64,000 bases of DNA from the IMG/VR virus record IMGVR_UViG_3300025015_000001, one strand, 5' to 3'. This DNA comes from a virus. Positions 9,531 through 43,672 of this stretch are shown one piece after another. A program made the position numbers and the translations under genes. A model generated the notes under the pieces. The model was not told the DNA's origin and ran no database searches. It worked only from the letters and a program-made list of their open reading frames with translations. Position 1 is the first letter of the stretch; the number at the start of each line of letters is the position of its first letter.

Positions 9531-9574
9531 TTTTTAGCGCCCTTATTAGGTGTATATTACAATTTTCAATTTTG

Positions 9575-19697: not shown

Positions 19698-21095
19698 ATG
19701 ATAAATAAAAAATCTTTATTTGATAGAGTAGCAGAAAGTCTTATTACAAAAAAATCTGGCACTGGCATATCTATAGAAAAAACAGCAGAAGACAAAACTG
19801 AACGTAAGAATAAATTCAAAGGTTTAGATGATTATGAAAAAATGATACTAGCAATATGCAATACACCAAGAACTGATTCACATATCAAGCAGTTTTTCAA
19901 ATCACGTAATGAGCAAGGTCAGACTATTAATTTTGATAGCAAGATACAGAAGCTTACAAAAGAGGGCTATTTAGATCATGGTTATAATAAGTATGTAGTA
20001 AATCCTAAATTTAGAGAATTTATAACAGTTATACCTATGACAGCCTCTAAAAAGGAAGCAATGAATTACGAAGTAAACACACCAGAGGATTATATAAGCA
20101 AAGCAGTTGCATACGGTTTAGATGACCCCACTATAATAAATAAATTATCAGATAGTTATGGGATAGAGCATAACCAAGCATATAACATGCTTCAGGATGC
20201 TAAGTCAGGTAAAACAAGTTATACAGATACATCAAGGGGTGATTTAGGTGGCGGATTAATAGATAGAACCGAAAGGGAGGAATACAGAGAGTCTATTATC
20301 GCGACCAAGTCTTTTAAGTTGAGTGTCGAAGAAAAGGTGGCTATAGTAGAGGTAGAGGCGGCACGTTATGAATGGAACGGTTCGGATTTAGTAAACTATG
20401 AAACTCAGGAAAAGGTAGATGTTAGTTCTCTAAAATTAAATGACAAAATATTAGATAATCCAGATACAGAAGAAAATTCATTTTTAGATAGAGCAGTATT
20501 TATGCTACCATCACATCTTTATATAGATGAAGTTGGTTATCATAAAGATTTAGCTGCACCTATTCTAATGGTTTATAAAGAATCTAGCAGAGAAGCTAAA
20601 AATCTAAAACAAAAGAAAGCTAACAAAACTGCAGCATCTTTTGTTAACACAATCGGGAGTAGCAATTATAAGCTTAACCCAAATAATGTTTCTCAACGGG
20701 CAGTTACATTTGCACGTAAATTTTTATCAAATTATAGATTCCCATTAGCACCAACTATTAAATTTAATGCTATGAAAAATGCATCCACAAGTAATAATAT
20801 GCTAAATGGGGAAGTACATTTGACATTGGGATTCAAGACACTATCAAATGTGCACAAGTATATTGATATATCAATGCCTATTAAAGAGGGTAGTTTCATA
20901 GAGCCCTCCACTATGACTGTAGATGGCAAATCTTATATCATATCCCAATCCGCAATAGACGATCTAACCAAAAGTGGGACATTTTACACCACAGTTAATC
21001 CCAGGGCATCTTCCCAGCCGATGGACAGGAAAATTTTGGATACATTCAAAGATAGAGTCGTTCCTAAAATAAAAAGAAATTTGTTTTCAATCTGA
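19698..21095 (+). CDS. Putative virion protein
   Basis: 465 aa; N-terminal NKKSLF, internal KSFKLS, KTA/KVA motifs. Confidence 0.6.
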   Translation: MINKKSLFDRVAESLITKKSGTGISIEKTAEDKTERKNKFKGLDDYEKMILAICNTPRTDSHIKQFFKSRNEQGQTINFDSKIQKLTKEGYLDHGYNKYVVNPKFREFITVIPMTASKKEAMNYEVNTPEDYISKAVAYGLDDPTIINKLSDSYGIEHNQAYNMLQDAKSGKTSYTDTSRGDLGGGLIDRTEREEYRESIIATKSFKLSVEEKVAIVEVEAARYEWNGSDLVNYETQEKVDVSSLKLNDKILDNPDTEENSFLDRAVFMLPSHLYIDEVGYHKDLAAPILMVYKESSREAKNLKQKKANKTAASFVNTIGSSNYKLNPNNVSQRAVTFARKFLSNYRFPLAPTIKFNAMKNASTSNNMLNGEVHLTLGFKTLSNVHKYIDISMPIKEGSFIEPSTMTVDGKSYIISQSAIDDLTKSGTFYTTVNPRASSQPMDRKILDTFKDRVVPKIKRNLFSI

Positions 21096-21148: not shown

Positions 21149-24100
21149 TTGGTCTTATTGTTAGATAAGTACAAGGAACAACTAGATTTTAAATCAAAAA
21201 ATTATGAGGAGATAGAGGCTTTTGTTGGTGATAAGCCTCTTGTCGTTTCAACTAAAATAGATGGGATTTTGCATATAGCAAAATATCTTGATGGTAAGAC
21301 TTACCTTGCTACTCGCGAGGGGCGTATTACAGAAGAACTACCTGTATTGACTGAGATTTCTAAGATGTTAAATGATAAACAAGAAACAATTTTATTTGGT
21401 GAATTGTATGGTATAGATGCTGACGGTAGAGAACTACCGTTAAATGAGACAATATCAATCACAAGAAAACCAAAATCACCAGAAGATGAGCATAGAATTA
21501 AATTTGGCATATTTGATATTTATAAATATGATGGAAAATTAGTAGAGGAGAACGACTACTGGAAGAGATTGCTGTTAGTACAAGAATTATTTGAAGACGG
21601 TAAGTATGTTCATCCTGTATATGCAAAAAATGAAGACGGATCTTCTGCTATTAAAAAAATGTGGGAAGAGGAAGTTTTAAGAGAAGGGCACGAAGGTGTA
21701 GTTTTACATATAGAAGGTAATACTATTAAGATTAAGCCTACCAAAACTATAGATTGTTTAGTTATTGCGGTTAAGCCTAATTTAGAAAAAGGCTTTGCTA
21801 GTTCTTTATTTTTAGCATTGATGGATAAGGACGGCATATTCAGAAGTACTTCATTTGTTGGTACAGGATTGACAGACGAAGACAGAGTGGAGTGGTTAAA
21901 TTATGCAAACGAAAATAAAGCCCTAGCTCCTAATCATGATGAGCTTTTATGGATTGATATAAATAAAAATCCAAGAATTGTAGAAGTAGACTATGAACGC
22001 CCTATTGTAAAAGAAACAGAAAGTTTTAAATTCATTAATGGCGAATGGGGACAATTAGAAGAAGAAAGATTAGCTGCTACACTAATCAAACCCAGATTTA
22101 TTAGATTACGCGAGGATAAAAAAGTAACAGAGACCGATCTCAGACTTATTCAGATTCCTGATTTAGAAAAAGAATTGACTAAAAAAAGTTTTAAAATAAA
22201 TGCTGATCTTAAATCTTATGATGATTGGTTTTTGTCAGAGTATGGTGAACTACCTAAGTATGAGTATGTGTATATGCAAAGATTTTACGAAGGTCAGCCA
22301 CTAGATATAGCATTCAATGATACAAAAATACATTCTACTAGATTAGATAGATTTGATTTTAATTTAAATAAGTACTCCGATAGAATTACTAACTTGTCTC
22401 AATTAATTGCTGACATGGATAAAGTTAAGGCTATAGGGTATGATAAGATAAGTATTATCAAGCCATCTGGAGAAATAAAATTATTTGATAAAAAATCATT
22501 TAAACTAGAAGCTTATTACCCAAATCACCCTAATACAGTAATTTTTTCTAAAGGAGAATTTTTAAGATATGATCTTAGAGAAAAAGATGTGTGGGAATTT
22601 TATGATAAAGTAAAAGACAAAATATTACAACAAACTCGCGGTAAGAATGTTTTATTATATCTCAGAGTTAATGGTGATATATTAAAACGTAAACATGATG
22701 GTATAGTCAAGGTAGATAATTATAATGATTTTAACCGTATTAATAATGGTAGAATGATTGAGATACACTCTGAAATATGTCAAGAAAAAAGGGATACTTG
22801 TCTTACTGATATTATTTTTTGTGATGTAGACCCCAAAGAAAATTTCCCTTGGAAAGATACAAAAGAAATAACTAAAAAGATATATAATATTTTTAACAAG
22901 GACTCCAATGTAAAGCATGTAAAAATCCACTATAGCGGGAACAGAGGATTCCACTGTATAGCAAAACTTAGGGAATTATGGGAAGTTGATAGAGCAAGAG
23001 AGTATACAAAACGCTTGCTTAAATCATTAGAATCTGATAAAATAAAGTTGGGTATAGTGCGAGAAAATGATATGTTACGTTTAGATACCACTTTATTAAA
23101 AAGACGAGGCTCTTTGCGCACAGCGTATTCTTTAAATAAGACCACAGGATTAGTAGCAGTTCCTGTGGATATTAAATCTTTAGACACTTTTGAAAAGAAA
23201 GATGCTACTATAAAAAAAGTTTTAGAGAAGTTGAGTGCAAGTAAAAAATCATTTAAAATTAATGCCGAAGATATTATATATGGTCCTTGGGCTATATATG
23301 ATGATATAGTAGATGCCGCTACTGGAGATATTACTCACATAGAATGGTTTACCAATATAGGATTTCCAGTATCCCCAAATATTTTTGATAAGATTACCAG
23401 AGGTTCGTACATTATAAGAGATGGTATACTTAATATAATGATTTATCCTGAAGCTGGGTATGTAGAAGAAGCCCTAGATAAATCAAATAGGTTAATGGAT
23501 AAGATAGGTTATCATGATAAGTATAAAGAAGTTAGGTTTTTTAAAAGCCATAAAATTGGAATCAACAGGATAGCTAAAAAATCATTTAAAATAAATTCTT
23601 CTATATTAGATTATCCTAAGCCTGGATTAGAACCTAAAGTATGGAATTTTGATGGTACCATAAATGAGAATGTAAAATCACAAATACTCAATAAACTTAA
23701 CAAATTTATAGAATCGCAAGGATATAGTGCTAAAGAAATTATAACTAAAATTTATGTAGTGGGAAGTTTAACTTCATACCAGTATAATAGAAATACAGAT
23801 TTGGACGTTCACTGTTATTTGAATCTCCAAAATATGTTAGGAATATTTCAGGGCAATGAAGCCGACCTCATAGAATTAATAGATAAAAGTTGGCGTAAGA
23901 CATTAAATAAAGCCGAATCAGAGACTATAGAAGGAACGCAGCACCCATTAGAGTTCTATTTTGAAATACCAGAAGATTTATCCGTAGCACCTTCAGATGG
24001 TGTTTACGATTTATTAAATAATACTTGGATAAAAGAACCTAAAGTTATTACTGTGGATTTTGATATAGAGAAAATATATCCTGAAATTATTAATAGAGCT

Positions 24101-24784
24101 AAAGAGATTGCAAAAGAATTAGACATTCAAATAGGTGAATTAAAACGAGATGTCACAGATGCAGAGATGATTCAGGATTTGATTGACTACTTATCCGAAG
24201 AACAAAAAGGGTTATTTGTAGAGAAGTTAAATACCAAGATAGAAGAAATAGATAATAATATTGTAGATTTACTTAAAGTAGAGCAAAGTATTAGTGATAA
24301 GCGCCACGAAGATTATGCTTGGGATAGTGAAGGAAATATTTTATTTAAATTTTTACAAAGATTCGGCTATGTCGGGTTGTTAAAATCTATTGAAAAAGCT
24401 ATAGGCAATGATAAAAAATTTGATACGGATGACATAGAAAATACTCAAAAAGTACTAAACCCAATTAAGAGTTTTAGATTATATGCAGGATTCTACGATC
24501 CCAACAGCCCGATTTTACTCAATCCAGAAGGCGGAGGAGAAGGCAGGCATAGACTTGTAGATCCTAAAGCCTTTGATAAAGACTCATTTAGGCGCTGGTC
24601 AGAGTGGGCTGGAGTAAAAGCCCCAGCTGGGATTACATTCTTAGTCGGAGATTTAATTAAAGAAAAAAATAAAGCTCTTCAGGCCATACGTTTTGATACT
24701 AATATAATATCTGAAAAGGAAGCAGAAAAATTTTGGAATAAAGTAAAAAATAAAAAAGGTTTTGAAAAAACTTGGAAATGGTAG
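21149..24784 (+). CDS. Polyprotein: ATP-dependent DNA ligase + LigD-type primase-polymerase + Pol-beta-like nucleotidyltransferase + small modules
   Basis: Ligase KIDG, FGELY, FDIY, EGVVL, KIKP, PRFIRLREDK; AEP DVDP, SGNRGFH, YSL; NTase GSLTSYQYNRNTDLDVH; domains separated by KKSF-type motifs. Confidence 0.9.
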   Translation: MVLLLDKYKEQLDFKSKNYEEIEAFVGDKPLVVSTKIDGILHIAKYLDGKTYLATREGRITEELPVLTEISKMLNDKQETILFGELYGIDADGRELPLNETISITRKPKSPEDEHRIKFGIFDIYKYDGKLVEENDYWKRLLLVQELFEDGKYVHPVYAKNEDGSSAIKKMWEEEVLREGHEGVVLHIEGNTIKIKPTKTIDCLVIAVKPNLEKGFASSLFLALMDKDGIFRSTSFVGTGLTDEDRVEWLNYANENKALAPNHDELLWIDINKNPRIVEVDYERPIVKETESFKFINGEWGQLEEERLAATLIKPRFIRLREDKKVTETDLRLIQIPDLEKELTKKSFKINADLKSYDDWFLSEYGELPKYEYVYMQRFYEGQPLDIAFNDTKIHSTRLDRFDFNLNKYSDRITNLSQLIADMDKVKAIGYDKISIIKPSGEIKLFDKKSFKLEAYYPNHPNTVIFSKGEFLRYDLREKDVWEFYDKVKDKILQQTRGKNVLLYLRVNGDILKRKHDGIVKVDNYNDFNRINNGRMIEIHSEICQEKRDTCLTDIIFCDVDPKENFPWKDTKEITKKIYNIFNKDSNVKHVKIHYSGNRGFHCIAKLRELWEVDRAREYTKRLLKSLESDKIKLGIVRENDMLRLDTTLLKRRGSLRTAYSLNKTTGLVAVPVDIKSLDTFEKKDATIKKVLEKLSASKKSFKINAEDIIYGPWAIYDDIVDAATGDITHIEWFTNIGFPVSPNIFDKITRGSYIIRDGILNIMIYPEAGYVEEALDKSNRLMDKIGYHDKYKEVRFFKSHKIGINRIAKKSFKINSSILDYPKPGLEPKVWNFDGTINENVKSQILNKLNKFIESQGYSAKEIITKIYVVGSLTSYQYNRNTDLDVHCYLNLQNMLGIFQGNEADLIELIDKSWRKTLNKAESETIEGTQHPLEFYFEIPEDLSVAPSDGVYDLLNNTWIKEPKVITVDFDIEKIYPEIINRAKEIAKELDIQIGELKRDVTDAEMIQDLIDYLSEEQKGLFVEKLNTKIEEIDNNIVDLLKVEQSISDKRHEDYAWDSEGNILFKFLQRFGYVGLLKSIEKAIGNDKKFDTDDIENTQKVLNPIKSFRLYAGFYDPNSPILLNPEGGGEGRHRLVDPKAFDKDSFRRWSEWAGVKAPAGITFLVGDLIKEKNKALQAIRFDTNIISEKEAEKFWNKVKNKKGFEKTWKW

Positions 24785-26222: not shown

Positions 26223-29200
26223 ATGGCACGTCCTAAAAAAGATTCTCCCACAGTAGACATGCGGTCAAATATATCATTAGATGATATTGGTTCTGAGATA
26301 TCAGGATTATTTGATAAGCATATTATTGGCGGAGAAAAAATTGATTGGAATAAAGATAGCGTAGGCGAATCTACACAAGCAGTAGACAAATATGCTATAG
26401 ACTTTTCCATACAAGCTCCTAATATTATAGAATGGAGCACTAGTGAGAAGTTCTTAAATCAACCATCTTTGTTTGATTATAAAAGACAGTATCAAACAAT
26501 ACGAGATTTGTTTCAATTAAGATGCCCATTATGCAATAAATTAGATAGACAGTCTATAGATTGTTGGGATAAAGGAAGAGAATATTTAGAATCAGAGAAT
26601 TTATTAGCATGGTCCCCAAAGCACCATGACGATGTTTGCCCATCTTGCAATACTACAAGAAGAGAATTTGAAACAGATGGTATCTTTAAACGTTATAATA
26701 CTTTTGTGGCATGCGTTGGTATGCGTTCTGGTAAAAGTGTCATGGCAGGGGCTTATTTAGGCACCTACATAGAACATTTAATAATAACATTAGGTAACCC
26801 CTCATCTTACTTTGATGTTTTTCCTGGGCAGCCATTTGAGGTGGCATTTACAGCAACCACAGAGGTTCAATCGGAAGGAACCATTTATGCATATTTTAGA
26901 GCGGCACGAGAACAGTCCCCTTGGATACAAGCTTATATAGAACATTTGAAACAGGAAGAAACAAGAAGAGGGTTATTTAAGCAAACACTATATAACGAAA
27001 CAAATAAAACCATATATTACAAAGAACTAAATACAGAATTCAATTCCTTGCATTGCTTTACCAAAGGTACACAAATTTTATTAAGCAACTACACATATAA
27101 GAATATAGAAGACATACAGATTGGTGATCAAGTACTAGATAGAAAAGGCTACACACAAAAAGTAGAGAGTGTTTGGTGTGAGGGCGCACCCAAAGAAATT
27201 TTAGAAATAACAGTTTATGGTGGTACTAAATTTAAATGTACCAATAACCATAGATTTCCAGCATATGTGTGGCCCAAGAAATGTTACTGTGGATGTGGGG
27301 CTGAGCTCGATACAGGGCGCTCTTTTATAAAGGGGCATCAAGGTAATGGTAGAAAATTTAAGATGCGTATAGCAGAGGGTAGCGGAGGGCACGTAAGAAG
27401 ACTTCCTCTGGAATATAACCCACTACAAGACGTTATAGCGGAAGATCTCGGTGTAAACGATTACTTATTTATGCCTAGAAAATTTGAAGAGATCAAGACA
27501 GACGTCTCCCCAGAGCAAGCTAGATTATTAGGTTATTACATCGCCGAGGGCTGTAGTAATAGAACTACGTACAAATCTGGCTATAAAAGGTTGGGATCGG
27601 AGTTCACATTCCATAAAGATGAACTACATACATGGGTTAAAGATATATACTATATTTGTGATAAATATAAAATTCACTACAATACATATTTAAGAAAAGA
27701 CGCTAAGGCGTGTGTAACTTTTACATCTGGAAAAAATGCAATTGAGACAGCAGAATGGTTGGAGACAAACGGCGGCGTCTTTTCAAAAACAAAGAAACTC
27801 TCTGAGGATGTGATGAGATGGCCATTAAATCTTAAAATGGAACTTATCAGAGGGCTATTTAGGGGTGATGGTACTCATCATTTAAAAAAACAAAGATGCC
27901 CTAATATCACATATAACACGGCTTCAAAAATCTTAGCTCAACAGGTACAAATGATTTTATGCCAACTAGGTTATTATTCTGGAATTGTAGAGCATAAATA
28001 TAGAATTACTAAATTTAATAAGAATGGTAAATCTATTGGCTACTATGTTAATATGGGGGGTAATCAAACATTTAAGTTAGCCGAAGAAATCTGGGGCGCG
28101 AATAATAAATTTATTGATGTAAAAATAAGCCCTATTAAAAATTTATGTAAAGTAGACGACGATTATATTTACTTCCCAATTAAAAGTATTAAAAAGATAA
28201 TTAATTCTGATCCTGTATATAATCTAACAGTTTCAAATGACCACTCTTATATAGTAGGTAATATAGGTACCTATAATTCCAATTCCGGAGGGCTAGCTGG
28301 TAGAACACGTGTTTGGGCCGTAGTAGACGAGCTAAGCAGATTTGAAACTTCAGTAGGAGAAAGTCGTAGGGGGGCAAAAGAAGTTTATAATGTTATTGAT
28401 AATGGTTTAGCTACTGTAAGAGGAGAAACCGATAGAAGACAATTGCCATATATTTTTGGAATGATGAACGCAGTAAGTTCACCCATTCATAACAATGATA
28501 TGACAATGAAACTTCTTAAGACTGCTAAAAAAGATAAAAATGTTTTTGCTGTACATTACCCTACTTGGAAATTTAATCCTAAGATTACAAGAGAAAGTTT
28601 AGAATCAAGATTTCAGAGAGACCCTATTGGAGCAGAGAGAGACTTTGGCGCAAATCCACCCAATGCAGAAATGCCTCTTATTACAGATGAAGAACGTTTT
28701 AGAAAATGTATTAATCCAAATCTAAAACCAAAAGCAACATTTGAAGACACTACTCCTGTGGATGGTATGGGGAGAATGTATGCAGGTAAAATACTAAAGC
28801 ATGCTGATTTTGATAGATTAACATCATATTATATAGCTGGTGACGCAGGTAAATCCAAGGATAGTTTTGCTTTAGCTTGCGGTCATGGTGAGTATAAAGA
28901 TGTTCACACGCCAAACGGAATAGAAAAGAAATGGTGCACCATAATGGATTGGTGCGTTACGATAAGACCATCTGTCAAACCACGTAAAACTATTTATTAT
29001 GATTGTATTGTAGACATATTAAATAGAATTAAGCAAAGACAAAAAATACAATCAGTTGCATTTGACCATTGGCAATCAGAAAGTATTTTACAAGATCTAA
29101 GCAACATGCAAATCGAGACAGCAACATATAATGTCAAAGCTGAAGATTATATGAGATTTGTTATAGATGCGTATGAAAGTAAAGTTCAGTTAATACCCCC

Positions 29201-29489
29201 TGTAGCTGAAGATGAATATCTAGACCCGTACGCACCAGTTAAAGGTATGTCAGATTATGGAAGACTTGTGCATGAATTATTAAATTTAGAAAGAAGTGCA
29301 GATTTAAAGACAGTCGATCACAGATCAAATGAGCATAATGACTGCGCTGCAGTGGCTGTAATGGTGCACAAGAATGTACAAGAACAGGTATCCACTACAG
29401 GCAAGTCTAAGAATTTTAAAAATGCAATGAGTGTAGCAGTACAAAGTGGGCTAATGCCAACCTCAGCTAGAGTAGGATTCTGGCGATAG
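26223..29489 (+). CDS. terL: Terminase large subunit with intein
   Basis: Walker A GMRSGKS, Walker B AVVDE, nuclease IAGDAGKSKDSF and FDHWQS; 680 aa after intein removal. Confidence 0.92.
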   Translation: MARPKKDSPTVDMRSNISLDDIGSEISGLFDKHIIGGEKIDWNKDSVGESTQAVDKYAIDFSIQAPNIIEWSTSEKFLNQPSLFDYKRQYQTIRDLFQLRCPLCNKLDRQSIDCWDKGREYLESENLLAWSPKHHDDVCPSCNTTRREFETDGIFKRYNTFVACVGMRSGKSVMAGAYLGTYIEHLIITLGNPSSYFDVFPGQPFEVAFTATTEVQSEGTIYAYFRAAREQSPWIQAYIEHLKQEETRRGLFKQTLYNETNKTIYYKELNTEFNSLHCFTKGTQILLSNYTYKNIEDIQIGDQVLDRKGYTQKVESVWCEGAPKEILEITVYGGTKFKCTNNHRFPAYVWPKKCYCGCGAELDTGRSFIKGHQGNGRKFKMRIAEGSGGHVRRLPLEYNPLQDVIAEDLGVNDYLFMPRKFEEIKTDVSPEQARLLGYYIAEGCSNRTTYKSGYKRLGSEFTFHKDELHTWVKDIYYICDKYKIHYNTYLRKDAKACVTFTSGKNAIETAEWLETNGGVFSKTKKLSEDVMRWPLNLKMELIRGLFRGDGTHHLKKQRCPNITYNTASKILAQQVQMILCQLGYYSGIVEHKYRITKFNKNGKSIGYYVNMGGNQTFKLAEEIWGANNKFIDVKISPIKNLCKVDDDYIYFPIKSIKKIINSDPVYNLTVSNDHSYIVGNIGTYNSNSGGLAGRTRVWAVVDELSRFETSVGESRRGAKEVYNVIDNGLATVRGETDRRQLPYIFGMMNAVSSPIHNNDMTMKLLKTAKKDKNVFAVHYPTWKFNPKITRESLESRFQRDPIGAERDFGANPPNAEMPLITDEERFRKCINPNLKPKATFEDTTPVDGMGRMYAGKILKHADFDRLTSYYIAGDAGKSKDSFALACGHGEYKDVHTPNGIEKKWCTIMDWCVTIRPSVKPRKTIYYDCIVDILNRIKQRQKIQSVAFDHWQSESILQDLSNMQIETATYNVKAEDYMRFVIDAYESKVQLIPPVAEDEYLDPYAPVKGMSDYGRLVHELLNLERSADLKTVDHRSNEHNDCAAVAVMVHKNVQEQVSTTGKSKNFKNAMSVAVQSGLMPTSARVGFWR
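27054..28277 (+). mobile_element. 408-aa intein with LAGLIDADG endonuclease in terL
   Basis: CFTKGT start, TNNH block B, LLGYYIAEG and IRGLFRGDG, C-terminal VYNLTV...GTYN followed by Ser; splicing restores FNSLH/SNSGGLAGRT. Confidence 0.92.
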
Positions 29490-29843: not shown

Positions 29844-30212
29844 ATGCCGATTGACAAGTTCAGTAGATATCAAACAAAATTAGTAATGAGTGAAATGTAC
29901 CCAGCTAAAACAGATGGTACTTGTAGATGTGGTTGTGGTAAAAAAATAGAACCTCCACGTAGAATATGGCATAGTACAGAATGTTACACTAATGCTCTTA
30001 ATAATTATTTTGTTATTCGTGGCGATGTACCGACTATAAGAAAATTATTACAACAAAGAGACGATGGTGTATGTAATAATTGCAAGAAGAAACTATCCAG
30101 CTGGCAAGCTGATCACATCGTAGAAATTAGAGATGGTGGTGGTGGATGTGGATTAGATAATTTTCAGACGTTATGTTTAAAGTGCCACAAAAAGAAAACA
30201 CATAGTAGATAA
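29844..30212 (+). CDS. HNH endonuclease
   Basis: CRCGCG N-module; CNNC...ADHIVEI...NFQTLCLKCH. Confidence 0.9.
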   Translation: MPIDKFSRYQTKLVMSEMYPAKTDGTCRCGCGKKIEPPRRIWHSTECYTNALNNYFVIRGDVPTIRKLLQQRDDGVCNNCKKKLSSWQADHIVEIRDGGGGCGLDNFQTLCLKCHKKKTHSR

Positions 30213-32799: not shown

Positions 32800-35382
32800 A
32801 TGAAAAAATCATTTAATTTAAATAGTGTTTTTACTGATATGTATTTTGAGGATCGTAAATCTCCATCTATAGGATTGCAGAATCCTATCCGTATGCCCGC
32901 CCCATCCGATGGTTGGAATTTAGAGCCTAAAAATCAATCGGAAAGAACATTATCCCCTATCATGAGAAGAGAGCAAACAGATGATATTATGGTAAATGAC
33001 GACTCTAGAATTAAAAATAAATTACCGAATAAATCTAAAAAGAAAGAAAAATCATATAAAGAATTAGGAGTGTTACCTACCAAAAAACGTTTAAAATTTA
33101 TTACAGAGAATCCATCTGATAGTGGTCACAGTATGTTAGGACCAGGAAGTAGTGGGATAGAAACAAATAACGAAAATAAAGCTAAGCCTATTCCTGTGCG
33201 TAAACCACAACATACTGTACGCGAGAATAATGTAGAGTGGTTGGATAAATTAAGCAGCATATTACCCGATTGGTGCAGAGTAGCTTATAGAATACAAGAC
33301 ATCTTATCAGAAAAAATAAAAAAATATAATCTGCACTTAGATGACTTATTAGCACTAACAAAATCTGATATAAAAACATACTTTATGGGGAACAGAAGAG
33401 ATTTTGGTGGGTTTATAAGACAATGGGGAGGCGACGATGTTTTAGCAGCAGCATCTGTTAAATTATATAGAATCGCCCACCCAGAACAATTCTCAAGATT
33501 CTTTACTCCTAATCAAGAAAAAGAAGTATTGGATTGGGCTGAAAGTATTTTACAGCAGTATGATATGCAATCTAAAAAATCATTTAATCTAAACTCCTTT
33601 GAAACTCAAAATAGAGATGTTATGGAAGAAGGTTATCAATTAATGCCCAGGAGAGACTTTCCTGATGGATTTCATAAACGCCCAGTAACTCAGCCAGGAG
33701 AAGGCCATCTACCATTCATGCGTGGCAAGGAACCGGGAGAAAACTTATCTAAAATCCCAGTAGAGGATTTATCTCCCAGGCCATTTTTTGAAACAAAGGT
33801 ATTTAAGCCAAGAAGAAAATATATATATGATGTTAAGAAAGTAAAAACCTCCTCCGAAAAGTACGAAAATATCGTACTATCTGGAGATAAAAAATCATTT
33901 AATATTATGTCTATTAAATTAAACTGGGGGAGCAGTTTACAAAATAAGTATCTTAGCGAACTTACTTCTGAATATAAGGAAAAGTTAATCAATATGGCAG
34001 TAGAAGTATGGCAGAAAAAAGGAATAAGTAGAGAAGCTATAATAACTAAATGGGATGAATTATCAGATAAATTAGATAAAGTAAATAAGTCTGAATTTAT
34101 TGCTATATATAATTCATATGCTACAGAATTATATGGGGCATATGAAGAGTTTAGAAAAAGAACCGATGGTATAGAAAAAGACGAATCACGCGCGGATGGT
34201 CTAAATCCTAAACCTTATTACGGGGACTCTAATATTTATCCATATAGAGGCACAGGCGTAGGTTTACCCTCTTCTACATTTATAGAGCCATTTGAAACAG
34301 TAACGAGAGAAGTTAGAGTATCAAAGATTCTGCCAACACAATCTATCGGTAGTAAAAATAAATCATTCAAAGTAGTAGCACAGGACGAAGAAGATAAGCC
34401 AGCAGTTTCTCAAGAGGCATACGATGCATTTACTGAGAAGTCTTACGTATTTAAAAATTATCAATTAGCAGCCGAACAAATTGAAGACGCTATTGATAAA
34501 GGGAAAGATTTATCCATTTTATTAAAATATCAGAAAATGTCTGACACTCAGAAGCAGAGAGCAGTTAATAGAGCTATTGAGAAGAGTGTTGCACTTATAT
34601 ATTTATATGAGAATGAAAAAGAAAGTTTATCAGATGCTCAATATAAGCATCTTATCAATTCATTGTATAAAAAAGCAATGGATGATGGTACTAATTTAAT
34701 ATATATTCTTAGAAATTTTGATCTACCTGCAGAAAGAAAAACTGTATTAGTTCAAAAGGCATTAGAAGAAGGTGTTGGGTTACATTTCTTATTTAAGAAT
34801 AGATTACTTACCCCGGAGCAGCAGGATTACGCTGTTAAAAAAGCAATAGAGACTGGATTAGGTTTATTAGATCTACTTAAATATATTAGCTTAACTCCCG
34901 AACAAAAGAAAGTTGTTATTAATAAATGTATAGAAAAAGGAATAGCATTAATATATTTACTGCGCAAAGAAGATTTAAGTGAAGAACAAAAGACTAGTGT
35001 GTTTAGTAAAGCACTGAGAGAGGGAAAAGGTTATCATTTTATTTTAAGAACATATAAATTATCTCCCGAACAAATTAATTTAGCAATAAGAAGATCTAAG
35101 CATAAATATGATAATTTAAAAATGATAGCGAAATACCAAGATATTAGCCCAGAGCAGCAATCTTACATAGATAAAAGGATTGAAAAAATGAAATCAAAAA
35201 AAAGTTTTGTAAATGCTAAGTATGTATTCGTGCTGCCTGGTGAAGAAGGCTTCGAAGAATTACAGCAATTTTTCAGAGAAGCGGATGATGAGTCCGTAGT
35301 AAAGATGTATGACTATATAGAAAGTGATAATCTTGCAGATGCTAAAAAATTATTAGAAGAGTTTATAGGCACGGAAATATGA
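32800..35382 (+). CDS. Modular protein with five KKSF-type motifs and a helical-repeat domain
   Basis: KKSFNLNS x2, KKSFNIMS, NKSFKVVA, KKSFVNA. Confidence 0.75.
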   Translation: MKKSFNLNSVFTDMYFEDRKSPSIGLQNPIRMPAPSDGWNLEPKNQSERTLSPIMRREQTDDIMVNDDSRIKNKLPNKSKKKEKSYKELGVLPTKKRLKFITENPSDSGHSMLGPGSSGIETNNENKAKPIPVRKPQHTVRENNVEWLDKLSSILPDWCRVAYRIQDILSEKIKKYNLHLDDLLALTKSDIKTYFMGNRRDFGGFIRQWGGDDVLAAASVKLYRIAHPEQFSRFFTPNQEKEVLDWAESILQQYDMQSKKSFNLNSFETQNRDVMEEGYQLMPRRDFPDGFHKRPVTQPGEGHLPFMRGKEPGENLSKIPVEDLSPRPFFETKVFKPRRKYIYDVKKVKTSSEKYENIVLSGDKKSFNIMSIKLNWGSSLQNKYLSELTSEYKEKLINMAVEVWQKKGISREAIITKWDELSDKLDKVNKSEFIAIYNSYATELYGAYEEFRKRTDGIEKDESRADGLNPKPYYGDSNIYPYRGTGVGLPSSTFIEPFETVTREVRVSKILPTQSIGSKNKSFKVVAQDEEDKPAVSQEAYDAFTEKSYVFKNYQLAAEQIEDAIDKGKDLSILLKYQKMSDTQKQRAVNRAIEKSVALIYLYENEKESLSDAQYKHLINSLYKKAMDDGTNLIYILRNFDLPAERKTVLVQKALEEGVGLHFLFKNRLLTPEQQDYAVKKAIETGLGLLDLLKYISLTPEQKKVVINKCIEKGIALIYLLRKEDLSEEQKTSVFSKALREGKGYHFILRTYKLSPEQINLAIRRSKHKYDNLKMIAKYQDISPEQQSYIDKRIEKMKSKKSFVNAKYVFVLPGEEGFEELQQFFREADDESVVKMYDYIESDNLADAKKLLEEFIGTEI
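34510..35196 (+). repeat. Eight imperfect ~28-aa helical repeats
   Basis: Consensus L-x-Y-L-L-K/R-x-x-x-L-S/T-P-E-Q...A-I-E-x-G. Confidence 0.85.
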
Positions 35383-36056
35383 AAATTTTTAAACTATCTG
35401 AGTTAGGTGATATAAAAAAATCATTTAAACTAACAGACCTTATGAGTATGGATATTATTAAAAAATCATTTTTTATAATAGATGCCGCATATTATGCTTT
35501 AATTGATAATGCCAAAATATTTCATACAGAACAATTAAATAAGAGAGAATTTGAGAGAGCACAAAAACATTGGCAAAAAGATAATCCAAATGTTCAATTC
35601 CTGGAAATTAATAAAGATAAATATAACGAATTAGTAGAACGTTTTAAAGAAAATAAAGATGAAGAGATCTCTATTTCAGATGTAGGTATTTCTGTCCCAA
35701 TCAAAGAAGAGCCTATTGACGAAGTAGAAGAGGAACCTGTAGAGGATGAAGAGGAGATAGATGAGAAAGAAGAAGCAGACATATCTGATATATTATCAGC
35801 AATTAAAGAAGCTGCCAAAAAACAATTATTACTAAAAGTAACATACAGAGATCGTGATGGTAATGTTACAGAAGGACGTTACATTGAGCCGTGGGAAATA
35901 AGAGACCAATACGTGTTTGCTGGCGATAACTATGGCGACCCAAGCACATCTGGGGAAATCGGGACCAAGCAGTTTATAATGGCAGCTTTTAGTGATTGGG
36001 GATTATCAGAAGAACCTTACCAAAATCCAGCTGCCTACCCTATAAAAATAAAATAA
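35379..36056 (+). CDS. Protein with KKSF leader, acidic linker and C-terminal WYL-like domain
   Basis: AAKKQLLLKVTYRDRDGNVTEGRYIEPWEI resembles the WYL core. Confidence 0.65.
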   Translation: MKIFKLSELGDIKKSFKLTDLMSMDIIKKSFFIIDAAYYALIDNAKIFHTEQLNKREFERAQKHWQKDNPNVQFLEINKDKYNELVERFKENKDEEISISDVGISVPIKEEPIDEVEEEPVEDEEEIDEKEEADISDILSAIKEAAKKQLLLKVTYRDRDGNVTEGRYIEPWEIRDQYVFAGDNYGDPSTSGEIGTKQFIMAAFSDWGLSEEPYQNPAAYPIKIK

Positions 36057-36643: not shown

Positions 36644-38872
36644 ATGGCAAAAAAAGTTGCAAATCAAGCAGCGATTAAAAATTTATCATCTTTTGTCTCT
36701 CCTCAGATGGTGCATGGTAATAAGCAAGCTGCCGCTGTATCTGAATTACAAAAAGAAATGAACAAGACGGCAGATACTGGCGGGGTATTTTTTAGTGTAC
36801 CAACCCCGTACCAGCCCGAATTCGGCGACCCATCTAAGATAAATTTCCCTATAGATCGTCACCAGGCCAATAGATATTGGAGATTATTTTATCGGACCGA
36901 CCCCATTGTGGGTTCTGTTATAGATATGTTTTCTGAAATGCTTACATCCGATATGGATTTATATGGAGAGGGAATTACAGGAGAGGTTAAGAGAGCGTAT
37001 GAGCAAGCTATAGATAATACGTCTATAGTATCGCTATTTCAATACTTTATAAAAGAATTCTTAGTAGTGGGGGAAGTGATTCCTCATTTAATATTTGATG
37101 AGTCTAAGGGAGTATGGAGCGATTTAATATTCCATAATCCGGATCAAGTAAATGTGTTGAGTTCCTCATTTCTCAACGTTCCAACTATCTTGGAGTTCTG
37201 CCCAGATGAAGGTTTACGTAAGTTCATAACATCACAGCACCCCCAAGTATTGGATTATATACAGACATTACCTGCAGAGATAGTTTCGGCAATTGCGTCT
37301 GGGCAAAATGTACCACTAAATACAAAATTTAATGTTTCATTTTTAGCAAGAAAATTATTTCCGTATGATGTTCGTGGTACAAGTATTATGCCGAGAATGT
37401 GGCAGATTTCGATGTACGAATCCTCAATCATGAACGCTAGTATCCAAACAGCAAAACGTCATTCCGGCCCTATTAAAATCGTAAAAATCGGCTCCCCAGA
37501 GCATCAATTTATTCCACCCAAAGAATTTTTTGATGAGATAGTTCAACAATTTACTATAGCAGAATCAGACCCACATGCTATGATTGTACTGCCTAATTAT
37601 GGTATACAGTTTGAGGCGTTTGGGACTACTGATAGGATGATGAGTATTAGTAGAGAGTATGATATTATAGAGCGCGTAAAAATGACTGCATTAGGCGTTT
37701 CAGCAGGCATGATGCACGGCGAGTCAACGTTCGCAGCGAGCAAGACCAATCTTAATACTCTGCTACTCAGACTTAAAGGTATGCGCAAGTTCTTTGAATC
37801 TATGTGGTTTCATAATAAATTCTTCAAACCATTGGCTGAGATAAATGAGTGGCACCACAGATCAACTTCGGAGATCTCCCATCGCGTCCGTATTAAGAAA
37901 AATGCCAACGAACAACGTCTCATAGTACCTAAGATTAAATGGAGACAATTATTAGAGCCTGTAGTAGATAAGGATATGTTAGAAGCAATTAGGCTCCTTA
38001 ATGATCTTGGTGTTAAGTCAAGCAAGACCACGTCATTTGCTGCAGCGGGGCTTGACTTTGAAGGAGAAACTGTTAATGCTCTTACCGAGCAGAAGATAGA
38101 AAAGCAACTTAGAAAGAAAATATTACCTGAAGATGTCAAGGATAAACGTCCAGAAGATATAGCCCAAGAAATTCTTCCCGGTGGTGGGATGCCATTGTCA
38201 ATGTCAGAAGAACTACCAATGACACCAGTAGAAGAGGGTAGTTTACCAGAAGCAGCACCTGTCGGATTACCTCCAGAAGGAGAAGCACCAACTCCAGAAG
38301 AAGCTGCCGAGGTGGCCCCCGGGGCTCCTCCAATTACACCGGCCCCAGCATCTAAGCAAGCTCCCTCTAAAAGAGGCTTTAAAGTTACTGCTAACGATGT
38401 AGATGATTTAATTGATTTAATGGAAACTGGTAATACTGAATCCCAAATTTGGTCTTATATTAAATCTAAGGGAGAAGGTAATAACGAGTTTATTAAGAAT
38501 TGTAATTGGGATAGAATAAGTGAATATATGGAAGATGAGAATTTTAGTGATGCTGAAATAGAATATGTAAGAAAAGCATTAGTAAGAAAACATATAATTG
38601 AAGCTTCATTAAATGATAAATTAGAAGATGCAGTAGAAACTTTAAATTTAGCTGCTGCCACTGATGCGGAGCTACATTCTAAAATTGATAAAACTATTAG
38701 TGATATATTTAAGGATAAGATAGCTAAGATACAAGAAAAAGTCAAAGAGCAAGATGATGCGTTCTTAACTGGTGAAGGTAATATATATTCTGATAATGAT
38801 TTTCTTGTAAGAAGTGGTGGGAATTTATCAGATAAAGCTATCAAGAAATATCGGAAGACTAAGAAGAAATAG
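36644..38872 (+). CDS. Portal protein
   Basis: Located between terminase and protease; FYRTDPIVGSVIDMFSE, RKLFPYDVRGTSI patterns; Pro/Glu linker and C-terminal extension. Confidence 0.8.
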   Translation: MAKKVANQAAIKNLSSFVSPQMVHGNKQAAAVSELQKEMNKTADTGGVFFSVPTPYQPEFGDPSKINFPIDRHQANRYWRLFYRTDPIVGSVIDMFSEMLTSDMDLYGEGITGEVKRAYEQAIDNTSIVSLFQYFIKEFLVVGEVIPHLIFDESKGVWSDLIFHNPDQVNVLSSSFLNVPTILEFCPDEGLRKFITSQHPQVLDYIQTLPAEIVSAIASGQNVPLNTKFNVSFLARKLFPYDVRGTSIMPRMWQISMYESSIMNASIQTAKRHSGPIKIVKIGSPEHQFIPPKEFFDEIVQQFTIAESDPHAMIVLPNYGIQFEAFGTTDRMMSISREYDIIERVKMTALGVSAGMMHGESTFAASKTNLNTLLLRLKGMRKFFESMWFHNKFFKPLAEINEWHHRSTSEISHRVRIKKNANEQRLIVPKIKWRQLLEPVVDKDMLEAIRLLNDLGVKSSKTTSFAAAGLDFEGETVNALTEQKIEKQLRKKILPEDVKDKRPEDIAQEILPGGGMPLSMSEELPMTPVEEGSLPEAAPVGLPPEGEAPTPEEAAEVAPGAPPITPAPASKQAPSKRGFKVTANDVDDLIDLMETGNTESQIWSYIKSKGEGNNEFIKNCNWDRISEYMEDENFSDAEIEYVRKALVRKHIIEASLNDKLEDAVETLNLAAATDAELHSKIDKTISDIFKDKIAKIQEKVKEQDDAFLTGEGNIYSDNDFLVRSGGNLSDKAIKKYRKTKKK

Positions 38873-40372: not shown

Positions 40373-43300
40373 TTGTCATTTTACAAAACATCAAAGGCTG
40401 ACATATTAGCATTTCGTAATACCTCCGAAGCTGGTTTTACGAGAAATGCATCTCAAATAAAGACATCATCCTTTTTCCAAAATAACGGAACTAAGGTAGA
40501 CGTCAAAGCTGCTATTGAGAATGTGGCTGATACCTATAAAATTTCCAAGAATCCTAACGATTATATATTTGTAATATCAAGAGCACTTACAGCAGATGTA
40601 CCTAACGAAAATAATGATGCATTTCCTGCAGACGAACTTTTAAGATTTGATCCTAAATATGGTTGCAGAGTATTCCAGACGTTTAATTTAAAACCAAATC
40701 ATATCAACCATAGAGCAGACGATCCAACACAAGCTCGTGGTGTTATATTAGATGCTCATTATAATGATATGGATAGCGACAATAAGTTTGTAGAAATTCT
40801 TGTTGCTGTAGATAAGACCAAAGATAGAAAGATTGCAGAAGGCATACTTAAGGGTGATATTAATAGTATGTCAATGGGTTGTTTTAGCGAAGAATGTCAT
40901 TGTAGCATATGTGGGCACATAGCATCTTCTTCTGATGAACTATGTCCAGATCACATTCGTGGTGGATTAAAAGGTAAATTATTTGAAGGCAAGAAAGCCT
41001 ATGAAAAATGTTATAAAGTTTGTTTTCAAGAAGAATCTTGGGTAGACGACCCAGCGGATCCTCAAGCATTAGTTAGCGAAGTATTAGGTATTAATGCTAA
41101 ATTAAAAGAAGCTGAAAAGAAGCATAAGATGGAAGATGAATCTTCTATTTTAATATTATCTAATAGACTATCTAAAATTGAGGAGTCACTTGGGGCTATG
41201 AATAAAAAAGCAAATGAAGAGAGGCTTATTCATGATGTCAACGGTCCAAATTGGCACGTGTTTACAAAAATAAGATTAGAGAATAATGGCGTTACTATTC
41301 TAAAAAATTATAGTGTTAATGCATCTGATAGAGCGCTTACTGAAGAGGAGTATAATGCTATACCTAATACCGAACTTCGCCCCTGGAACGAAACTGGCGA
41401 GCTTGACGCTAAAGGTAATAGACTGTCTACAGAATATTTTGTACCTACTAAAGGGTGGTTAAAAATAAATAATCCAGAATGGGTGTACGCGTCTGATACT
41501 CCTGATTTAAAAAAACAAGCCTTTAAAGTTGAAACTAAATTTAAGCAGAAGAAAGTAGAAGACTCTGCTATTACTAATATAGAACAGGAATCAGAAACTG
41601 AAGTTGAAACTAACTTAGATAAATTTATAGAAAAATCAAATACAGAGGAGCTAAAGCCTATGTCAGCCAATGAGTTTGGAGCAGTTAGTGCTACTAAAAA
41701 TCCCTATGTCAAGATTGCAGAAGGAAAAGTACCTTCGGCATGGAAGAGCCCAGGGAAATCAACTGGAAAAGTTCCATCATTATGGAGCAATCCTGGGAAG
41801 GGTAGCGGTAAGGTTCCCTCTCTTTGGAAGGCGGCTTTCATAGAAAAGCTTGCTCTTGATAGTAAAGCAGAAGAGTACTGGAAGAAGTATTGGGGTTCTT
41901 ATGGTGAGGAGCTTGTCAAGGACATTAAGAAGAAGAAGCTTGCAGGTAAGCTCACAGTAGAGCAGATGAAAGCTATTGAGCCTAAGTTTGCTGGGATAAT
42001 GGAGTCCGCTGGAATAGACACCATCGCAGTAGATAACGTACTAGAGCTTGGTGACGCGATCAACTCAGTACAGGCAGCTAAGGACCAAAAATCTAAGCTC
42101 TGGTCTGACATAGATAATAAGATAAAGACTAAGAAGGCTGATTTAGAGATAGCTCTTTGTGGAGATGAGTGGATTTTTAAGGAAGGATCTAAGAATATTT
42201 TTGCTATAGATAATTCTTTTAATATTACAAAAGAAGCTTTTGAGAGCGATGAATTTGGTCAAAGTATATGCAAGTCACTTTTAGAAGATGGTGCTGAAAA
42301 GACTGCGGCTGAATACAGAGTTTCTCTTTATGATGCGACATCTAATGAGCCTGCTTCTATTTTAGAAGGGGCAGAAGATGATATTAGGGGAGAAGAGAAG
42401 AAGAAACCCACTAATGGTGTTGAAGAAGGCGGGTCAGATGATGTAGCTGATGTATACCGAGGCGATATCAAAGAAGAGGGTGGTGTAACAGAGGGTGCTA
42501 CTAATGATCTAAAAGCTACCAAAACTGCGGACATTAAGAGATTTAATGAAGTTATGCAGATAGCTGAGGATCTTATAGAAAAAGATAAACTTTCAGCACC
42601 AAAACAGGATAAGTTGGTTGATGTAATTAAAGAACTATATTTGCATCCCACAGAAGAGAAGAAAGAAAAAGAAGAAGATAAAATTGAAACCGAAATAGAA
42701 GCTCCTATTACTGATATAATGGAACCAAAAGAATCTAAGAAGGCCTCCACAGAAGATGTTAGAATGATAATTAAAGCTCTGACAGACCAGGCGATAGCAG
42801 AAGGCAAGTCAACCAGCTCACCAGAGATGCTGGACGCTATATCAGCGATTAAAATTGCATTTGATTTGGCGGAAACCCACCCAATATCAGAAACTCTTAG
42901 TAGCGGAGAAACCGTCACCTCAAATATTTACGCTAAAATGGTAGCAGAAAAGGTAGCTAATATTCTTGACAGTCCCATCACAGATTTAGCTGACAAGAAA
43001 GATGAGGCTAAAGATGGTGTGGTAGAGAATGGAATTGATGATATCAAAGGTGTAGATAGAGAATCAAACGCCGACCATATTTATGGTGGCGGACAAGACG
43101 ACATAGCAGAAGACAAGGGTGAAGTTATTAAGGTTGGTTCCAAAGAGTACGAAGAAGTAATCTCTAAGACAGCAACAGAAATAGCAGAAACCAGAATTGC
43201 TCAGGAGATGGATTTATTTAAGAAATCTTATGAAGCAAGACTAAAGAGGGCGCTCAATATATCAATAAGAAGGGCTAATCTTAATCTTATTGATAATGAG

Positions 43301-43672
43301 CTTAAGGCAGCAATGTACGATGTACTTACTTCTGAGTTTGAACTTCCTACTGGTGAAGTAGTTCCTGCATTAGAAGGTGTGGACGCAAACTGTCTTATCG
43401 AAGCAGCATTTAATAAAGGTGCTAAGAAGTTCTTCTCAAATATTTTAGCAGAGTCAGATAGAGCAATGAATCTTTCTGAGGATGCTCTTATTGAGGTAGA
43501 GAATGATTTGAATGGGCTTAATGTTGCACCAGTAACAGCTTCTTATGCTAAGAAAGAGGTTGTTGTTAATACCAAAGCCAAAGAAGCAGTAGAGGGTAAT
43601 CCTATATTTAAGTCTTCTTCGGAAGTAGCTAAGAGCAAGTTTCCAAGCATAAAAGGAATATTTAGGAGTTAA
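40373..43672 (+). CDS. Prohead protease-scaffold fusion
   Basis: N-domain PNENNDAF...HINH...ARGVILDA...SMSMGC...CSICG...FQEESWVDDPAD; long acidic scaffold-like C-region; upstream of capsid genes. Confidence 0.8.
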   Translation: MSFYKTSKADILAFRNTSEAGFTRNASQIKTSSFFQNNGTKVDVKAAIENVADTYKISKNPNDYIFVISRALTADVPNENNDAFPADELLRFDPKYGCRVFQTFNLKPNHINHRADDPTQARGVILDAHYNDMDSDNKFVEILVAVDKTKDRKIAEGILKGDINSMSMGCFSEECHCSICGHIASSSDELCPDHIRGGLKGKLFEGKKAYEKCYKVCFQEESWVDDPADPQALVSEVLGINAKLKEAEKKHKMEDESSILILSNRLSKIEESLGAMNKKANEERLIHDVNGPNWHVFTKIRLENNGVTILKNYSVNASDRALTEEEYNAIPNTELRPWNETGELDAKGNRLSTEYFVPTKGWLKINNPEWVYASDTPDLKKQAFKVETKFKQKKVEDSAITNIEQESETEVETNLDKFIEKSNTEELKPMSANEFGAVSATKNPYVKIAEGKVPSAWKSPGKSTGKVPSLWSNPGKGSGKVPSLWKAAFIEKLALDSKAEEYWKKYWGSYGEELVKDIKKKKLAGKLTVEQMKAIEPKFAGIMESAGIDTIAVDNVLELGDAINSVQAAKDQKSKLWSDIDNKIKTKKADLEIALCGDEWIFKEGSKNIFAIDNSFNITKEAFESDEFGQSICKSLLEDGAEKTAAEYRVSLYDATSNEPASILEGAEDDIRGEEKKKPTNGVEEGGSDDVADVYRGDIKEEGGVTEGATNDLKATKTADIKRFNEVMQIAEDLIEKDKLSAPKQDKLVDVIKELYLHPTEEKKEKEEDKIETEIEAPITDIMEPKESKKASTEDVRMIIKALTDQAIAEGKSTSSPEMLDAISAIKIAFDLAETHPISETLSSGETVTSNIYAKMVAEKVANILDSPITDLADKKDEAKDGVVENGIDDIKGVDRESNADHIYGGGQDDIAEDKGEVIKVGSKEYEEVISKTATEIAETRIAQEMDLFKKSYEARLKRALNISIRRANLNLIDNELKAAMYDVLTSEFELPTGEVVPALEGVDANCLIEAAFNKGAKKFFSNILAESDRAMNLSEDALIEVENDLNGLNVAPVTASYAKKEVVVNTKAKEAVEGNPIFKSSSEVAKSKFPSIKGIFRS
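41723..41830 (+). repeat. Three 14-aa GKVPS(A/L)W repeats
   Basis: GKVPSAWKSPGKST GKVPSLWSNPGKGS GKVPSLWK. Confidence 0.9.

Follow-up and report, generated by a model that had tools for sequence, protein, structure and literature searches.

Layout of the polyprotein gene

The complete virus record IMGVR_UViG_3300025015_000001 (194,269 bp) carries a long gene whose product is built of six modules, which include a DNA ligase, a LigD-type polymerase and a nucleotidyltransferase, separated by copies of a short peptide motif. The gene was studied in a window of 64,000 nucleotides, which corresponds to the first 63.9 kb of the record, reverse strand; coordinates refer to this window unless stated otherwise. 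The open reading frame extends over 1211 codons of the + strand from a TTG at 21149 to position 24784. Translation probably begins three codons later, at the TTG at 21158, where the database cluster and the relatives start. Modules (M1 to M6) and border motifs are located as follows.

21149..24784, +, polyprotein gene (open reading frame)
21149..22180, +, M1, ATP-dependent DNA ligase with nucleotidyltransferase and OB domains and motifs I-VI, without the N-terminal DNA-binding domain (Pfam, alignment)
22181..22204, +, border motif 1, KKSFKINA, residues 345-352
22205..22489, +, M2, about 95 amino acids (aa), without recognised family (60%-identical copy in the protein P0009)
22490..22513, +, border motif 2, KKSFKLEA, residues 448-455
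22514..23242, +, M3, archaeo-eukaryotic primase (AEP) fold of the LigD polymerase-domain (PolDom) type, with DVDP, SGNRGFH and RLD (Pfam, conserved motifs)
23243..23266, +, border motif 3, KKSFKINA, residues 699-706
23267..23575, +, M4, 'WAIY' module of about 103 aa, without recognised family (precedes the nucleotidyltransferase in distant lineages too)
23576..23599, +, border motif 4, KKSFKINS, residues 810-817
23600..24463, +, M5, phage-specific Pol-beta-superfamily nucleotidyltransferase, GS...DLD core plus C-terminal helical bundle (alignment, AlphaFold2, Foldseek, ESM)
24464..24487, +, border motif 5, IKSFRLYA, residues 1106-1113
24488..24781, +, M6, about 98 aa, without recognised family (kept in relatives)

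All five borders carry the eight-residue sequence K-K/I-S-F-K/R-[LIV]-x-[AS], situated exactly between the modules (general form KKSF[KNR][LIV]x[AS]). M2, M4 and M6 could not be assigned to a family with Pfam or PHROG, and M6 gave no meaningful lead in ESM. A kinship between M2 and M4 suggested by eye was dropped when profile comparison gave no signal. The polyprotein (P0001) had no Pfam peptidase match that would indicate an embedded processing peptidase, the folds of M2, M4 and M6 not being assigned.

The enzymatic modules

M1 matched the Pfam family DNA_ligase_A_M (PF01068) over residues 22-186 (2.9e-11) and, weakly, the ligase OB domain (PF04679) over residues 215-324, and it could be aligned to the Pyrococcus furiosus DNA ligase (2cfm) through motif VI. 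It contains the ligase motifs KIDG, GELY, FDIY, EGVV, KIKP and PRFIRLREDK. M3 matched LigD_Prim-Pol (PF21686) over residues 514-699 (5e-13) with 49.6 bits, compared with a curated cut-off of 27.4, and contains the AEP motifs DVDP, SGNRGFH, RLD and GSLR..YS. The aligned close relatives and one distant protein keep the ligase motifs (KIDG, GELY, FD, EGxV, KIKP, PRFIRxREDK) as well as the polymerase motifs (DxDP, SGxRGFH, LD, GSLR..YS), with the catalytic D conserved. When the whole protein was compared by tblastn with 50,697 phage records, matches were obtained through M5 only; no isolated phage among these records had a similar ligase or PolDom at E<=1e-5.

M5 (residues 818-1105) has no Pfam match of its own and belongs to a family with 1224 representatives among 1.8 billion proteins. 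Alignment of 38 members showed G59, D71 and D73 to be invariant and S60 nearly invariant (signature hG[GS] x9-13 DxD); 15 of these 38 match NTP_transf_2 (PF01909/PF22600) and the MTPAP palm model. The ESM atlas grouped M5 with NTP_transf_2 clusters at 0.97. The AlphaFold2 model, with a predicted local distance difference test score (pLDDT) of 91.3, has a Pol-beta-type core followed by a helical bundle. Foldseek matches in the PDB were weak (best E 1e-3), all of them to Pol-beta-superfamily transferases (ANT/AAD, CD-NTases, LinB, MNT), and in BFVD uncharacterised proteins of uncultured tailed phages were matched down to E 1e-15. A wide VIA-align search was swamped by generic helical bundles. 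M5 is a nucleotidyltransferase of the Pol-beta superfamily. Judged by the conserved residues, the catalytic motifs of M1, M3 and M5 are intact. The first-pass annotation of this DNA, made from the letters alone, had described a complete ATP-dependent ligase, an AEP with LigD PolDom motifs, a 296-aa Pol-beta-type nucleotidyltransferase and a KKSF-type motif at each module border, all of which are borne out by these results.

Stand-alone members of the M5 family exist as well. Maribacter phage Molly_1 (L004) encodes one, annotated as hypothetical, at 8896-9693, two genes after a NUDIX gene, and homologues were also seen in T4-like cyanophages and in Caulobacter phage Cr30. Cultured phages are thus available for the study of this enzyme family.

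Distribution of the border motif in the genome

In a six-frame scan of the whole genome the pattern KSF[KNR][LIVF] was matched 12 times, compared with 1.4 times in shuffled sequences. Eleven of the 12 matches fell into four genes between 19.7 and 36 kb, which flank the terminase gene and lie next to the portal gene: five in the polyprotein gene, one in the gene of a 465-aa protein, four in the gene of an 860-aa protein and one strict copy, besides variants, in the gene of a 225-aa protein. These genes and the head genes of the window are listed below.

19698..21095, +, 465-aa protein upstream of the polyprotein, one motif copy (TKSFKLSV) at about residue 204 (gene order kept in relatives)
26223..29489, +, terminase large subunit, interrupted by a LAGLIDADG intein (context)
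32800..35382, +, second polyprotein-like gene, 860 aa, four strict motif copies and a fifth degenerate one (sequence, genome scan)
35379..36056, +, 225-aa protein with two to three tandem motif copies near the N-terminus, directly upstream of portal (genome scan)
36644..38872, +, portal protein (context)
40373..43672, +, head-maturation protease, 1099 aa, fused to a long scaffold-like tail (phrog_18299, AlphaFold2, Foldseek)
45418..46524, +, major capsid protein, without the motif (context)

When a position-specific scoring matrix was built from relatives of other samples only, nine of its ten best matches in the genome were located in three of the four genes, compared with 2.05 matches per shuffle. 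A relaxed pattern, widened post hoc after the site KQAFKVET had been seen in the protease, gave nine genome matches compared with 0.9 in shuffles; all were in the late block, one of them in the protease and one in a 564-aa neighbour. Scanning of viral contigs with the peptide patterns gave no matches. The motif serine is encoded by AGT in two copies and by TCA or TCT in the others, lysine by AAA or AAG, and leucine by CTA, TTA or TTG. Because serine is drawn from both codon families and the lysine and leucine codons vary, selection appears to act on the peptide and not on the DNA.

In the 860-aa protein the sequence MKKSFNLNS places the motif directly after the start methionine, and a degenerate copy (KKSFVNA) lies at about residue 800. 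The motif also follows Met1 directly in P0013, in P0009, in the L014 protein described below and in P0096, a position that would fit a removed propeptide. Empty tandem copies were found in the window at 35379-35500 (MKIFKLSE..KKSFKLTD..KKSFFIIDA) and in a relative (P0008, residues 676-712), where KKSFRLVA-HKSFRLVI-RKSFRLVI-... runs on with nothing between the copies. Such runs resemble remnants left behind when recombination between motif copies deletes a module. Prepilin-type, signal-peptidase and clamp-binding motifs seem unlikely as identities, there being no hydrophobic segment or consensus match.

Exchange of modules in close relatives

Seven close relatives of the polyprotein (48-85% identity) were compared. 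The ligase and the PolDom are present in all seven, and M5 in all but one. The proteins consist of five to eight modules in varied combinations, and gains and losses take place exactly at the motif. M4 is missing from one relative and M2 from another; in a third (P0008) M4 and M5 are replaced by the run of empty motif copies, and two further relatives have extra inserted modules, including a cyclic-phosphate-processing receiver domain. M6 forms the C-terminus of the seven close relatives in which it is present, and four distant polyproteins have it in an internal position. The gene order around the polyprotein gene is kept, with four unassigned genes upstream and two unassigned genes plus the terminase gene downstream. 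Swapping of cargo between the same motifs, which had been raised on the basis of the first sequence, was therefore directly seen as gain, loss and exchange of modules.

A 60%-identical copy of M2 stands at the beginning of a different polyprotein, P0009, which contains NUDIX, DUF5661 and GNAT domains and seven motif copies. Because of this copy, modules seem to move between two cargo genes. P0009 occupies the slot between terminase and portal, as does the 860-aa gene. In a phage whose head protease is 63% identical to the one described here, the same slot is filled by a 1197-aa protein (L014) that has five to six motif copies, including one directly after the start methionine. The 860-aa gene (32800..35382) is the positional homologue of both. 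In a phage with an approximately 48%-identical protease the motif was not found in the sole candidate examined, which had been chosen only by its Pfam 2H match. The portal gene of L014 (6264-9761) contains an intein, and its product has a motif-like sequence, RRGFKVTS, near the C-terminus.

The 860-aa protein also contains several copies of a helical repeat, LTPEQ...AIEKG (residues ~560-790), of which about 20 copies occur in a 3973-aa relative starting with an M5 domain (the repeat was seen in P0023, P0025 and P0039).

Different motifs at the same borders in distant lineages

More than 100 distant proteins share M5, and their homology starts at the residue that follows the motif (SILDYP). A, S or T invariably precedes SILDYP, and basic or polar residues predominate just upstream of that position; MKKxA-SILDYP is the N-terminus of many giant proteins. 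In lineage B the motif is [KS]L[SN][ML]RK[KT][AS] (e.g. LSMRKKA), with 12 copies in a 3263-aa protein and eight in a 2830-aa protein; it also occurs once right after a start methionine and once in a small protein encoded ahead of the terminase gene. In lineage C the motif ISSLELE[AS] directly precedes the PolDom and an M6-like module of a 2659-aa protein. A single chain of lineage C (P0149) unites a poly(A)/CCA polymerase and an SLT lytic transglycosylase with a 2H phosphoesterase, a ligase OB domain and a LigD PolDom. Of 26 giant M5 proteins, 12 contain 2H, one DarA_C and one ART-PolyVal; GNAT also belongs to the domains of M5-sharing proteins. A site that is uniform within a lineage, different between lineages, fixed in position relative to the domain starts and present also as a putative N-terminal propeptide bears the hallmark of a recognition site that evolves together with its protease.

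Genes for Trypsin_2/Trypsin proteins and a membrane-anchored S49 peptidase were found within a few genes of the giant polyproteins (L006, 21228-22995 and 29041-29688; L005, 9061-9681). Processing by these peptidases is a possible alternative in those lineages. Homologues of the lineage B and C trypsin-like proteases were not found in the genome studied here. In genome G001 no homologue of the head protease of this phage was found, and its capsid-protein fragment is without the motif.

The head protease

The head-maturation protease is encoded 16 kb downstream of the polyprotein gene and was recognised by its match to phrog_18299 (1.2e-39). His113 and Ser167 are invariant in 47 homologues. In the AlphaFold2 model the core has pLDDT >90, and the top Foldseek matches were almost all to T4 gp21 and to the assemblins of herpesviruses (Epstein-Barr virus, herpes simplex virus 2, pseudorabies virus, Kaposi's sarcoma-associated herpesvirus and human cytomegalovirus), with probabilities of 0.93-1.0 for the first ten and weak E-values (>=7e-3). 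According to the model, the N-terminal domain has the assemblin/T4 gp21 fold. Enzymes of this fold read an aliphatic residue in P3 and cleave behind a P1 residue that is small or acidic. The preference for aliphatic P3 and small P1 would agree with the [LIV]-x-[AS] ending of the lineage A and C motifs, but not with that of lineage B.

The protease domain holds an invariant Cys/His cluster (C170, C177, C180, C191, H194), and the scaffold-like tail comprises about 800 aa. Several homologues have inteins inside the protease gene (set P0168, P0186, P0188, P0220, P0225-P0227).

Genome context

The 'terminal repeat' of the record is a mere 30-bp assembly overlap, and the assembly was for this reason taken to be circular. 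The polyprotein gene is located between replication genes (UvsW-type helicase and DnaG primase, 12.9-15.9 kb) and the terminase gene (26.2 kb). It shares a strand block with the terminase, portal, protease and capsid protein genes and ends 1.4 kb upstream of the terminase. The PHROGs search gave no match for the polyprotein or its six nearest neighbours. Assignment of the gene to a head module rests on strand, gene order and motif sharing, not on identified adjoining head genes. A scan for promoters and terminators performed no better than on shuffled sequences.

A second, stand-alone ATP-dependent DNA ligase is encoded outside the window (G000:C1:131898-132446, a 377-aa frame with a KLDG motif I, 74.5 bits); it is presumably the replicative ligase, and an NAD ligase was not found in the genome. 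Because this ligase and the DnaG primase are encoded elsewhere, the ligase and polymerase of the polyprotein are likely to be extra to replication. The LigD phosphoesterase (PF13298) had no match across the whole genome at E<=1.

The terminase of relatives occurs with and without the intein, the intein-less form being 667 aa long in L001. An HNH endonuclease gene (29844-30212) follows the intein-bearing terminase gene, and a transposase-like gene (phrog_506, 1.3e-24) lies at 39217-40047 between the portal and head protease genes. The product of 30983-32797 matches phrog_3684, and within its residues ~154-214 a stretch of 45 residues has 51% identity with part of a 1168-aa lineage C protein (L005) that contains DUF5661.

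Discussion

The border motif is probably a cleavage site. We favour this mainly because it is uniform within lineages and different between them, at fixed domain borders. Beyond cleavage itself, we infer the identity of the protease, packaging, ejection and a DNA rather than RNA substrate. In the proposed mechanism a phage protease would cut after the final Ala or Ser of the motif; the best candidate is the head-maturation protease of the assemblin/gp21 fold, which would act in the prohead. Once released, the ligase, the LigD-type polymerase and the nucleotidyltransferase would be carried by the capsid and delivered to the next host along with the DNA. There they would mend nicks, gaps or breaks of the incoming genome by filling and sealing, ahead of all phage gene expression. 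We put the chances of this reading in full, a cargo polyprotein delivering a packaged and ejected repair kit, at about even. Packaging is supported indirectly by the SLT, DarA_C and ART-PolyVal domains of relatives, because these are hallmarks of virion-delivered proteins (PMC5512222). As to function, repair of nicks, gaps or breaks in the incoming DNA would be the simplest reading; the company kept by the modules in relatives (2H, CCA/poly(A) polymerase, NUDIX, cyclic-phosphate domain) would point equally to RNA or signalling-nucleotide targets.

Several observations weigh against delivery of such a kit. The motif is absent from the major capsid protein and the portal, and the sole motif-like site in the protease (KQAFKVET, 381-388, just after the catalytic domain) was found with a post hoc pattern and is half conserved in relatives. 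The trypsin-like proteases that adjoin the lineage B and C polyproteins make a dedicated non-head protease possible. Replication genes lie 5 kb upstream of the polyprotein gene on the same strand, its immediate neighbours are without recognisable function, and the stand-alone M5 homologues of Maribacter phage Molly are among early-type genes. The physical ends of the genome are not defined by the assembly, which has the 30-bp overlap only. Ku (PF02735) had no match in the complete 194-kb genome; the host may still supply one. The first-pass annotation had likewise recognised neither Ku nor a phosphoesterase, and the whole genome bears this out. Three of its other proposals are upheld in part. 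Its placement of the gene among virion and not replication genes agrees with strand, order and motif sharing, but not with the replication genes upstream and the neighbours without function. Processing by the prohead protease is favoured by the lineage-specific motifs, the copies after Met1 and the gp21-like fold, and is disfavoured by the capsid protein without motif and the weak post hoc site in the protease. The suggested role in genome circularisation or break repair is now one of several readings, since related polyproteins suggest RNA or signal nucleotides as targets equally.

The modules might never leave the cell in which they are made: the protein, cut or uncut, could stay unpackaged and mend nicks and gaps of concatemers late in infection, or aid recombination-dependent replication. 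The UvsW-type helicase and DnaG primase just upstream on the same strand, the immediate neighbours without assigned function, the location of stand-alone M5 homologues of isolated phages among early or metabolic genes and the lack of the motif in the capsid protein would all suit such a cytoplasmic set. We nevertheless consider it rather unlikely, as replication is already served by the stand-alone ligase and the DnaG primase, the motif is common only to genes flanking terminase and portal, relatives fuse the enzymes to an SLT transglycosylase while related proteins contain DarA_C and ART-PolyVal, and uniform cut sites have no obvious use for the cytoplasmic enzymes of a DNA phage. Cargo that is delivered as proposed could also have a target other than DNA ends, mending host-cut RNA (e.g. 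tRNA) or acting on the nucleotide signals of defence systems. The modules are indeed combined with 2H/Acb1-like phosphoesterases (12 of 26), poly(A)/CCA polymerase with HD, NUDIX and the cyclic-phosphate-processing receiver domain; the ligase of P0006 also matches Pfam RNA_ligase, PF09414 (RNA_ligase) is given in the database for the cluster of this protein (P0002), and M5 homologues match a poly(A)-polymerase palm model. This appears quite unlikely in view of the OB domain and motif VI of M1, which are typical of DNA ligases, its alignment to archaeal DNA ligases, the best score of M3 with the LigD polymerase model, and the ligase-PolDom pairing, known from LigD, that is seen again in a distant lineage.

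Other explanations deny that the motif is cut at all. It could be a docking or capsid-targeting peptide or a linker, the protein being one multidomain LigD-like enzyme; bacterial LigD is active as a single chain, and the capsid-targeting sequences of the T4 type are short N-terminal peptides. A sequence that is repeated between all modules, is specific to the lineage and ends with A, S or T at the point where the conserved part of the following module begins finds its simpler explanation in a protease site, and the empty tandem motifs in P0008 and the 225-aa protein resemble scars of module loss, which makes an uncut linker or docking peptide improbable. An A/T-rich coding sequence, AAAAAATCATTTAAA, is found repeatedly and modules change places at it, as would be expected if the repeat were a recombination signal at the DNA level only. 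This was rejected on codon usage, the Ser, Lys and Leu codons varying among the copies, and other lineages have different peptides at the same borders, so that we regard it as very improbable; the repeated DNA may help shuffling, though it would be selected as peptide.

Parts of the proposed system are known from other phages. Polyvalent proteins, described for phages and conjugative elements, are large multidomain phage proteins encoded in late-gene context and predicted to be packaged and injected, with PrimPol as a cited cargo (Iyer et al. 2017, PMC5512222). The polyprotein resembles them in having several unrelated domains per chain (six modules here) and variable architectures in relatives (PMC5512222), and in domain content, with a PrimPol here and ART-PolyVal, DarA_C, 2H, GNAT and NUDIX in related proteins. 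It differs in its ligase: that report cites neither an ATP-dependent DNA ligase nor a ligase plus LigD-PolDom cargo, its three mentions of 'ligase' being RNA ligases. For polyvalent proteins processing by embedded peptidases (MPTase) has been proposed and the word 'linker' is not mentioned (PMC5512222), whereas here a uniform motif stands between the modules and Pfam gave no match to an embedded peptidase. Phage proteins that are packaged and processed by a protease are established for the T4 internal proteins and Alt, the phiKZ/SPN3US ejection proteins and the P1 Dar proteins (PMC5694885, PMC10052503, PMC12810830). As with T4 IPI-III/Alt (gp21) and phiKZ/SPN3US (gp175/gp245), the head gene cluster includes the gene of a protease with this predicted fold (PMC5694885, PMC10052503), and the short consensus site, the N-terminal propeptide (putative here) and the multiple sites per protein are further likenesses to those substrates. 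Sites of the T4/phiKZ type end in Glu (LxE, AxE), while here Ala or Ser follows a basic/aromatic pattern; there the capsid protein shares the site and the cargo is not a string of repair enzymes, while here the capsid protein is without the motif. The protease has the predicted fold of herpesvirus assemblin, and the motif resembles the assemblin site in its aliphatic P3 and Ala P1. Sequence similarity between the protease and assemblin is undetectable, and the proposed substrates here are cargo polyproteins and not a scaffold.

Bacterial LigD serves Ku-dependent non-homologous end joining, and the enzyme of Bacillus subtilis is a two-domain ligase-polymerase form without phosphoesterase. The 3'-phosphoesterase domain is present in many LigD proteins, not in all. 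The polyprotein is like LigD, especially the two-domain B. subtilis form, in that an ATP-dependent ligase core is followed by an AEP polymerase domain. It departs from LigD in several ways: neither Ku nor a phosphoesterase domain was found in the genome, a further module and two putative cut sites stand between the two domains, a nucleotidyltransferase and unassigned modules are added, and the gene probably belongs to a phage late region. Mycobacteriophages Omega and Corndog reportedly (Pitcher et al. 2006) encode Ku and borrow the host LigD to circularise. End joining by a phage on its own genome is common to both, here as a proposal; the arrangement is the opposite, as Omega and Corndog bring Ku and use the host ligase, whereas here a ligase and a polymerase come without Ku. 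A literature search found no DNA ligase plus LigD-type polymerase as packaged cargo and no regular inter-module site ending in Ala or Ser. The claim of an 'undescribed system' in the first-pass annotation nevertheless goes too far, and the polyprotein is better described as a variant of the polyvalent or processed internal proteins.

In its most general form, the proposal would be that widespread uncultured phages preload a Ku-independent end-joining set which is cut at a co-evolving site and ejected, restriction or CRISPR breaks being repaired or ends joined before expression; this wider claim can be put forward only tentatively and is less likely than not. The modules (ligase, polymerase, nucleotidyltransferase) are compact and naturally separable, and together with the protease and its site they are offered for biochemistry. 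Provided that the cutting and packaging do take place, ready-made DNA-repair enzymes would be brought into the cell by this phage and its relatives, a form of counter-defence by pre-loaded repair that would be distinct from inhibitor proteins or DNA modification. The grammar of cut sites would let phages swap cargo freely, and a lineage-specific site would be a readable grammar for capsid cargo in metagenomic phages, opening the repertoire of injected proteins to survey.

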